A stretch of DNA of 64,000 nucleotides, taken from the IMG/VR virus record IMGVR_UViG_3300027625_000002. One strand, given 5' to 3'. The stretch is from a virus. This document shows, one piece after another, positions 34,789 to 35,266 of the stretch (within the stretch, counting starts at the first letter, position 1; every line of letters starts with the position of its first letter). Made by a program: the position numbers and the translations under genes. Under the pieces are notes generated by a model. That model saw only the letters and a program-made list of their open reading frames with translations. It did not search any database and was not told the origin of the DNA.

Positions 34789-35160
34789 GTGGAGGCGTCG
34801 GGAATCGAACCCGAGTCCGGCAAATTTCCAAGCTCACCTTCGTCCACGTGCGTGATCGACTCGAAACAAAAACAGCGCCACCGCGTCGATTCAGTTTTGC
34901 TGGTTTCCGAGGATCTCGCCTCGGCAGAGCCATTCTTCAAAGTCCCGCACGGATGGTTAGGCAATCCCCGTGAAGCTAGCCTCTGTTGGGTTGATGGTGC
35001 CTGGATACCGAAGCGTCTACCGGACTACCAGCTCAGGCCGCTAGGGCCGGGGCGAATGCGTTGTCGTTCGCAGATATACGACTCGATTGGTCACAGCGGA
35101 TCGAGCGCCGCTCACACGCAGATGAGTTCTTCTTTTCGCCGTCGAAACCTGGTCACCCCC
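34789..35160 (-). ncRNA. ssrA: tmRNA (SsrA), tag reading frame ANDNAFAPALAA-stop at 35033..35071
   Basis: 5' GGGGGUGACCAGGUUUCGACGG and 3' GGGUUCGAUUCCCGACGCCUCCA; acceptor 5'-GGGGGUG/3'-CGCCUCC with G3-U70; CCA not encoded. Confidence 0.85.
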
Positions 35161-35191
35161 GAATTGTTCATGTTTCCAGAAATTCTAAGCT

Positions 35192-35266
35192 TGGTAACAG
35201 GGGAAGGATTCGCACCTCCGACCTCCAGGTTATGAGCCTGGCGAGCTACTCCTGCTCTACCCTGCG
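35192..35266 (-). tRNA. tRNA-Met(CAT)-like (could be initiator-like or Ile2/lysidine), non-canonical
   Basis: Cloverleaf drawn by hand: D-arm GAGC/GCTC, anticodon loop CTCATAA, T-loop TGCGAAT, encoded CCA; C1xU72 mismatch and G55; 28 nt upstream of ssrA. Confidence 0.5.

Follow-up and report, generated by a model that had tools for sequence, protein, structure and literature searches.

Does the ssrA gene inside a 64,000-nucleotide stretch of viral DNA (IMG/VR record IMGVR_UViG_3300027625_000002; hereafter "the window", meaning the whole stretch) belong to the element that carries it, or is it a host gene that marks an attachment (att) site? The gene encodes a transfer-messenger RNA (tmRNA) and lies beside a tRNA-Met gene on the minus strand. 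All available tests agree with one another in supporting that the tmRNA is the element's own and not a host att site; the doubt that remains concerns the nature of the element rather than the ownership of the tmRNA. Our reading, to which we assign a probability of roughly 0.7, is that the tRNA-Met and the tmRNA form a cassette inside a large uncultivated element that most probably represents part of a large or huge phage of lytic style from acidic soil or peat.

The initial annotation had described a complete ssrA gene on the minus strand, and two programs agree with it. ARAGORN called a tmRNA at 34789–35160 (−) with the tag ANDNAFAPALAA*, and the Rfam model RF00023 (gathering score 47 bits) aligned to 34787–35160 with 88.2 bits and E=6.8e-33 over its full length (model positions 1–374 of 374). 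The hallmarks named in that annotation are all present in the sequence: the 5' end is GGGGGUGACCAGGUUUCGACGG, G3.U70 and the T-arm are there, and the open frame ends in LAA (here PALAA) and a stop. The acceptor stem forms 7/7 pairs, the third of which is G3.U70, the alanine identity element, and the T-arm forms 5/5 pairs; at the 3' end CAA comes after ...CCUCCA, the terminal CCA not being encoded. Helix 2 (H2) comprises the segments CUCAUCU/AGGUGAG (7/7 pairs), GCGUG/CACGC (5/5) and GGCGAA/UUUGCC. The first pseudoknot (PK1) is built entirely of Watson-Crick pairs, both in stem 1 (AGCGG/CCGCU, 5/5) and in stem 2 (CUCGAU/AUCGAG, 6/6), and the resume codon GCG begins 10 nt past it. The tag frame runs over 12 codons to an ALAA end and the stop UGA, and its degenerate codon pattern has one match, versus 0 in shuffles. 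A small GGCC/GGCC hairpin spans the stop of the frame, and 3' of the tag lie the hairpins CACGG/CCGUG and CCGAGG/CCUCGG together with an extra one, AUCGAC/GUCGAU, which appears in the cmscan alignment as a 24-nt insertion relative to the Rfam consensus. All the structural elements essential to the tmRNA are intact, from the acceptor stem (with G3.U70) and T-arm to H2, PK1 and the tag frame. According to ARAGORN, the 64-kb window contains exactly two RNA genes, the tmRNA and a tRNA-Met(CAT), and no further credible RNA gene emerged when Rfam was run permissively over the complete stretch.

The second RNA gene had been taken for a "tRNA-like gene" 28 nt from ssrA. An adjoining RNA gene is indeed present, but it is a bona fide initiator-type tRNA-Met, and the spacing measures 31 nt. 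Rfam model RF00005 matches it at 35195–35266 with 53.9 bits. When the surroundings of the tRNA-tmRNA pair were scanned, neither a sigma-70 promoter nor an intrinsic terminator consensus was seen flanking it. In the acceptor stem, C1 stands opposite U72 in a non-Watson-Crick arrangement, followed by G2.U71 and C3:G70, with A73 as discriminator; the D-stem GAGC/GCUC gives A11:U24, the variable loop is AGGUC, and the anticodon stem CCAGG/CCUGG provides the pairs A29:U41, G30:C40 and G31:C39. The CAU anticodon, the 1:72 mismatch, A11:U24 and A73 are initiator features, whereas of the pairs 29:41, 30:40 and 31:39, classically all G:C in initiators, only two are G:C here. Judged from its sequence, the gene is a genuine initiator-type tRNA-Met. 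When it was compared with 5,426 complete E. coli genomes, the median was four matching places per genome, as many as there are initiator genes, and the top match was the middle one of three tandem tRNA-Met genes beside mltA, which we take to be the metZWV initiator cluster of E. coli K-12. The E. coli tRNA-fMet (metZWV/metY) shares with it the CAU anticodon, the 1:72 mismatch, G2, C3, A11:U24, the same D-stem, the AGGUC variable loop and A73-CCA; it differs in having A72 and G2:C71 where the window tRNA-Met has U72 and G2.U71, and in having three G:C pairs in the anticodon stem, the first of which is replaced here by A29:U41. The T-loop of the window tRNA-Met, UGCGAAU, is odd in carrying G at position 55, a place almost universally taken by U (pseudouridine), and the D-loop is short; both loops also differ from those of E. 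coli tRNA-fMet. Among three huge-phage tRNA-Mets compared, two (LR745206 and LR756504) share the C1xU72 signature with the window tRNA-Met, along with A11:U24 and the AU/GC/GC anticodon stem, whereas the tRNA-Mets that adjoin genes for proteins resembling the major vault protein (MVP) on two IMG/VR contigs have an ordinary G1:C72.

The ssrA gene might instead be the host chromosome's own copy, flanked by genomic islands or by a prophage inserted at or near it. It is a well-known integration hotspot, as for CP4-57 in E. coli, and a contig of 70 kb leaves distant borders out of view. In islands and prophages that target ssrA, such as CP4-57 and VPI-1, an integrase adjoins the 3' end of ssrA, which recurs as a direct repeat at the far border; the same gene is involved here, but neither the integrase nor the 3'-end repeat was found in the window. 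In Pfam scans, none of the approximately 135 predicted window proteins matched an integrase or recombinase, and no duplicated ssrA 3' end exists in the window or in any of the overlapping contigs fetched, both as the initial annotation had stated. The ssrA 3' end (20–29 nt, up to 3 mismatches) occurs once in the window and once in each overlapping contig, and the tRNA 3' end (last 25 nt, up to 3 mismatches) also has a single occurrence in the window; this search for a distal repeat reaches about 30–35 kb from ssrA. Local repeats are at chance level, and the ssrA gene is full-length rather than a 3' fragment. The Pfam scans likewise found no ribosomal, housekeeping or host core gene among these proteins, on either side of ssrA. 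A gene call based on GC content at third codon positions (GC3) predicted about 135 genes, which take up 85% of the sequence and have a mean length of ~135 aa; 126 of them lie on the minus strand, co-oriented with the RNA genes, and the GC content of the window is uniform at 0.60–0.65. This dense one-strand layout of small open reading frames (ORFs), rich in ORFans, extends ~30 kb to either side of the tmRNA, so the architecture does continue across ssrA as had been proposed. The accompanying proposal that paralog families occur on both sides holds for two families in BLASTP comparisons: the S24/DUF7249 'GWKN' family (10878–11141 and 26237–26545 versus 35329–35859) and a second pair (6603–6995 versus 36925–37533). 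The remaining detected families are confined to one side. Since no integrase is present and the same architecture and paralog families occur on both sides, no island border is supported at ssrA.

The comparison with other tmRNAs also bears on a chromosomal origin. The window tmRNA (88.2 bits against RF00023) scores close to the tmRNA of LR756500, a 462-kb 'uncultured phage' (95.5 bits), and well under ten chromosomal tmRNAs (133–198 bits), which places it within a phage range represented by the single example LR756500. The ten chromosomal genes scored come from metagenome-assembled genomes (MAGs) of many phyla and share the 5' 22-mer of the window tmRNA; they also have in common with it the tRNA-like domain, PK1, an ALAA-ended tag ORF and, less certainly, a downstream pseudoknot region, whereas the window tmRNA scores 45–110 bits lower, bears the extra hairpin and has no host-gene context. 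In total, the 5' 22-mer was matched in 13 MAGs of unrelated phyla, every one with a different tag. Two matches to it in IMG/VR were rejected as unrelated permuted tmRNAs. The window tmRNA is 42–53% identical to all sampled tmRNAs, and neither a host nor a donor lineage could be assigned through it. The exact tag, searched as a degenerate pattern, had 0 matches in 185,579 species-representative genomes and 0 in IMG/VR; 0 matches were also obtained in metagenome contigs, a weak negative because that collection is without the samples known to carry the element. A likeness of the tag to alphaproteobacterial tags, which we had presumed, could not be confirmed. Its full length, the lack of an integrase and of a repeat, and its phage-like score and neighbourhood support the first proposal that the tmRNA is carried by the element and does not mark an att site; we consider it highly improbable that it is the chromosomal ssrA of a host.

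LR756500 resembles the window in having a full-length, one-piece tmRNA in the genome interior with a low RF00023 score. A tRNA-Lys/tRNA-Met pair, the tRNA-Met being initiator-like, is separated from that tmRNA by 454 nt, and the LR756500 genome also encodes a 41%-identical MVP-like protein and, at a distance of 3.5 kb, an S24-like homolog. The two tmRNAs are nevertheless only 42% identical and differ in tag (GNNAEMRMAA versus ANDNAFAPALAA) and in GC content (29% versus 58%). Moreover, the LR756500 tmRNA stands among 13 tRNAs in 40 kb, whereas one tRNA is all that the 64 kb of the window contain, and beyond the S24-like homolog and the MVP gene the two have no neighbouring genes in common. Phage-borne tmRNAs have been reported from mycobacteriophages (PMC1475703, PMC11812305, PMC10586154), phage G (PMC12484599) and huge phages (PMC7162821). 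Those of mycobacteriophage clusters C1 and V and of megaphage G are, like the one described here, located beside phage tRNA genes and have no link to integration, but their tags differ (phage G: AKLNITNNELQVA) and their tRNA sets are large, unlike that of the window. No extended similarity of the tmRNA to the phage collection was found; among the blastn matches listed, only the tRNA-Met part was represented.

The same sequence (99.2–100% identity) was recovered in contigs of at least 34 metagenome blocks from peat or soil, in which the gene order around the RNA genes is identical, the downstream 141-aa ORFan included. Among the samples that contain the element are JGI 3300009520, 3300032160 and 3300027641 and the runs ERR14031799 and SRR6195974. 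The single-nucleotide polymorphisms (SNPs) that distinguish strains fall into short, dense patches at 24652–24868, 30796–30853, 33207–33249 and 37333–37586 against a background of ~100% identity, a pattern that suggests recombination between related strains. The longest contig with these proteins has 70,369 bp, so that the window represents about 91% of the assembled sequence; the 5.6 kb past its right edge hold more small ORFans, and on the left side only contigs of up to 2 kb were found.

We infer the phage identity of the element from its gene content. The AAA ATPase aligns across 95% of its length with a protein of the jumbo Bacillus phages PBS1/AR9, at 39% identity. The MVP-like protein is 40–44% identical to proteins encoded on IMG/VR contigs (up to 142 kb) and is similarly related to proteins of the 'uncultured phage' genomes LR756500 (462 kb) and LR756501/LR756503 (735,411 bp). 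The RNA ligase, phrog_23621 and PcfJ-like proteins match jumbo or huge phages, and other window proteins match Ralstonia/Burkholderia jumbo phages, ~145-kb myophages and phage genomes of 595–636 kb. About 15 window proteins match viral families of PHROG. Viral MVPs were described earlier (bioRxiv 10.1101/2023.11.10.566534), and Borg elements encode MVP-like proteins too.

Several results weigh against this reading. Capsid, portal, terminase and tail genes were found neither in the window nor in the 5.6 kb beyond it, and because no virion gene was found, 'phage' is not proven; since the contig is a 70,369-bp fragment, virion genes may lie elsewhere. Synteny with the MVP neighbourhoods of huge phages is absent, the MVP-like gene alone being common. 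With the tmRNA sequence, the AAA ATPase and the 520-aa protein as queries, no close relative was detected in IMG/VR. SmpB was not found among the ~135 window proteins or among 4 upstream proteins. As for the tmRNA, the Rfam alignment of PK2–PK4 is poor (posterior probabilities are low, and about 16 pairs are non-canonical), and the minimum free energy z-score (0.73) is uninformative, as is usual with pseudoknotted RNAs. Finally, the RNA region has zero substitutions in 12 contigs, an invariance across strains that is not significant (P about 0.07–0.25) because the SNPs are patchy. Any known phage is at most a distant relative of the element, and a search for a near DNA match returned none.

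The absence of virion genes from about 70 kb would also fit a non-phage large extrachromosomal element, either a megaplasmid or an unclassified giant, whose own tmRNA and initiator tRNA would serve translation in the same way. PcfJ-like, ParB_N and DUF3846 proteins and an orphan methylase are also typical of the entry and anti-restriction regions of plasmids and integrative and conjugative elements, some large putative plasmids carry similar translation genes (Al-Shayeb et al., PMC7162821), and the MVP-like proteins of Borgs point in the same direction. However, matches in the plasmid collection are weak and generic (RtcB, 27–33% identity), the MVP-like and PcfJ-like proteins have no plasmid matches near the top, and no relaxase, type IV secretion system or replication initiator was seen in the window, whereas the specific matches are to phage families and to jumbo or huge phage genomes. 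We therefore regard a non-phage element as unlikely. The tmRNA could also be a decaying, non-functional relic from a former host, so that the tRNA alone, or neither gene, is used; its low Rfam score (88 bits versus 133–198), the many non-canonical pairs in helix 5 (H5) and PK2–PK4, an insertion of 24–36 nt, the unencoded CCA and the lack of SmpB nearby would all accord with decay. Yet the elements known as essential are perfect, from the acceptor G3.U70, T-arm, H2 and PK1 to the 12-codon ALAA tag and its stop, and because a complete huge phage has a similarly low-scoring tmRNA, the low score appears typical of the class; the invariance of the RNA region, though not significant, also speaks against decay. 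A relic is thus very unlikely, and a fragment of a large or huge phage that carries an intact tRNA-Met and tmRNA remains the preferred reading.

Table 1. Coordinates of the RNA genes, their structural parts and the protein-coding features of the window.
Feature	Position	Strand	Evidence or remark
One-piece tmRNA (ssrA), 372–374 nt	34787..35160	−	ARAGORN; Rfam RF00023; helices inspected directly
tmRNA 5' acceptor strand GGGGGUG	35154..35160	−	Pairs with CGCCUCC at 34791–34797
tmRNA T-arm UCGGG/CCCGA, 3' acceptor strand and discriminator A	34790..34814	−	Direct inspection
Pseudoknot PK1	35082..35112 (RNA positions 49–79)	−	Stem pairing; Rfam alignment places the PK1 hairpin here
Tag reading frame GCG...UGA encoding ANDNAFAPALAA	35033..35071 (RNA positions 90–128)	−	ARAGORN; direct translation
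Extra hairpin AUCGAC...GUCGAU in the PK4 region	34855..34890 (RNA positions 271–306)	−	6/6 pairs
Spacer, 31 nt, from tRNA 3' CCA to tmRNA 5' end	35161..35191	−	ARAGORN; sequence
Initiator-type tRNA-Met(CAU), CCA encoded	35192..35266	−	ARAGORN; Rfam RF00005
DUF7249 ('GWKN') and S24-like peptidase-domain protein, directly upstream	35329..35859 (longest ORF to 36192)	−	PF00717; PF23907
141-aa ORFan, directly downstream, start 28–30 nt past the tmRNA 3' end	34334..34759	−	GC3-based call
PcfJ-like protein	2–1201	−	Pfam
ParB_N	2102–2500 and 31081–31392	−	Pfam; two or three copies in all
Proline-rich low-complexity protein, 330–356 aa, PPGY/PPQGYG repeats	18229–19299	−	No family match
Orphan N6/N4 DNA methylase	24646–25383	−	Pfam
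520-aa protein (N-terminal membrane segments), then 162-aa PG_binding_1 membrane protein	31442–33509	−	
SET-domain protein	43014–43445	−	PF00856, E=5.6e-11; among ORFans
ATP-type RNA ligase, RLIG1-like	47540..48385	−	phrog_14301, E=9.6e-45
870-aa MVP-like protein	48757–51369	−	PF11978 shoulder, E=1.5e-29; Vault_3, E=3.7e-8
Orotate-PRTase-like phosphoribosyltransferase	52720–53517	−	Pfam
RtcB RNA ligase (3'-P/5'-OH)	54120..55544	−	PF01139, E=6.9e-85; phrog_1075, E=4.3e-69
PadR-family regulator	56242–56535	−	Pfam; among ORFans
DUF3846 protein	60806–61126	−	Pfam

Pfam families were matched by about 14 of the ~135 predicted proteins (about 10%). They include PcfJ-like, ParB_N, a CmpB-like membrane protein, DUF7249, N6/N4 DNA methylase, PG_binding_1, S24-like peptidase and SET, as well as RLIG1-like RNA ligase, the MVP shoulder and repeat, phosphoribosyltransferase, RtcB, PadR, DUF3846 and AAA ATPase (Table 1). 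The genes that flank the tmRNA were considered as SmpB-like or other tmRNA partners and gave no such matches; the downstream 141-aa ORFan has no match in Pfam, PHROG, NCBIfam or the PDB. The S24-like family to which the upstream protein belongs has two peptidase-domain copies, in which the nucleophile motif GNSM/GDSM is kept and a His (LHIV/LHRV) stands in place of the LexA-type Lys; these copies resemble the Ser/His signal peptidases of archaeal or ER type, with a weak match to TIGR02228. DUF7249 is the family's N-terminal 'GWKN' domain. Homologs of the S24-like/DUF7249 proteins are also encoded within a few kb of the tRNA/tmRNA regions of the huge phages LR756500 and LR756504. The pair formed by the 520-aa and 162-aa proteins, 1.3 kb downstream of the tmRNA, could be related to the cell wall or to lysis. 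An islet of six plus-strand genes at 20523–22497 (+) interrupts the minus-strand array, and the AT skew flips there, to +0.21 in 20001–22000.

The ATP-type RNA ligase, the phosphoribosyltransferase and RtcB form a loose cluster of genes related to RNA and nucleotides. Proteins annotated as RNA ligases in mycobacteriophages and in Ralstonia jumbo phages share 34–43% identity with the ATP-type enzyme. That the contig encodes two RNA ligases whose chemistries complement each other suggests a role in tRNA or tmRNA repair; both genes lie 12–20 kb away from the tRNA-tmRNA pair, and a functional link between them and the pair is speculation.

Established tmRNA biology suggests how the cassette could work. 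The tRNA and the tmRNA would be transcribed together with their neighbours within a long polycistronic transcript, from which host RNase P and 3'-end processing enzymes would cut them out. Because the CCA of the tmRNA is not encoded, a host nucleotidyltransferase would add it, after which the host alanyl-tRNA synthetase would charge the tmRNA with alanine through G3.U70. SmpB, whether of host origin or encoded in another part of the element, and EF-Tu would then bring the tmRNA to ribosomes stalled on broken or stop-less mRNAs; A-ANDNAFAPALAA would be added to the stalled product, and host proteases would degrade it, the ALAA end being a standard degradation signal. A plausible benefit is that ribosomes would be kept available during infection, when host shut-off, mRNA decay and RNA-cleaving defences may stall them, while the initiator tRNA would sustain initiation. 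RtcB and the second RNA ligase would fit the theme of maintaining the RNAs of translation. A more specialized version of this scheme, which we think quite improbable, would make the pair a 'start-and-rescue' takeover cassette, in which a divergent tmRNA, its tag found in no sequenced bacterium, is tuned to function while RNA-targeting defences destroy host tmRNA or tRNAs, or else evades such defences or acts as their decoy, together with RtcB and the RNA ligase, and the recurrent C1xU72 tRNA of huge phages marks phage-specific initiation.

Knowledge of phage-borne tmRNAs goes back to the mycobacteriophage genomes, a catalogue from huge phages followed in 2020, and no new question is opened by the present case; because such genes are already reported, the window tmRNA is a divergent example of a documented type. 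It adds a high-GC example from soil or peat to the large phage-like elements equipped with a ribosome-rescue RNA of their own. Such copies can diverge strongly from cellular tmRNAs, as seen in the score of 88 bits and the unique tag, while their essential structure is kept. The pairing of an initiator-type C1xU72 tRNA with a tmRNA hints at a recurring phage strategy directed at both translation initiation and rescue, and the two RNA ligases nearby hint at the same strategy of translation control.

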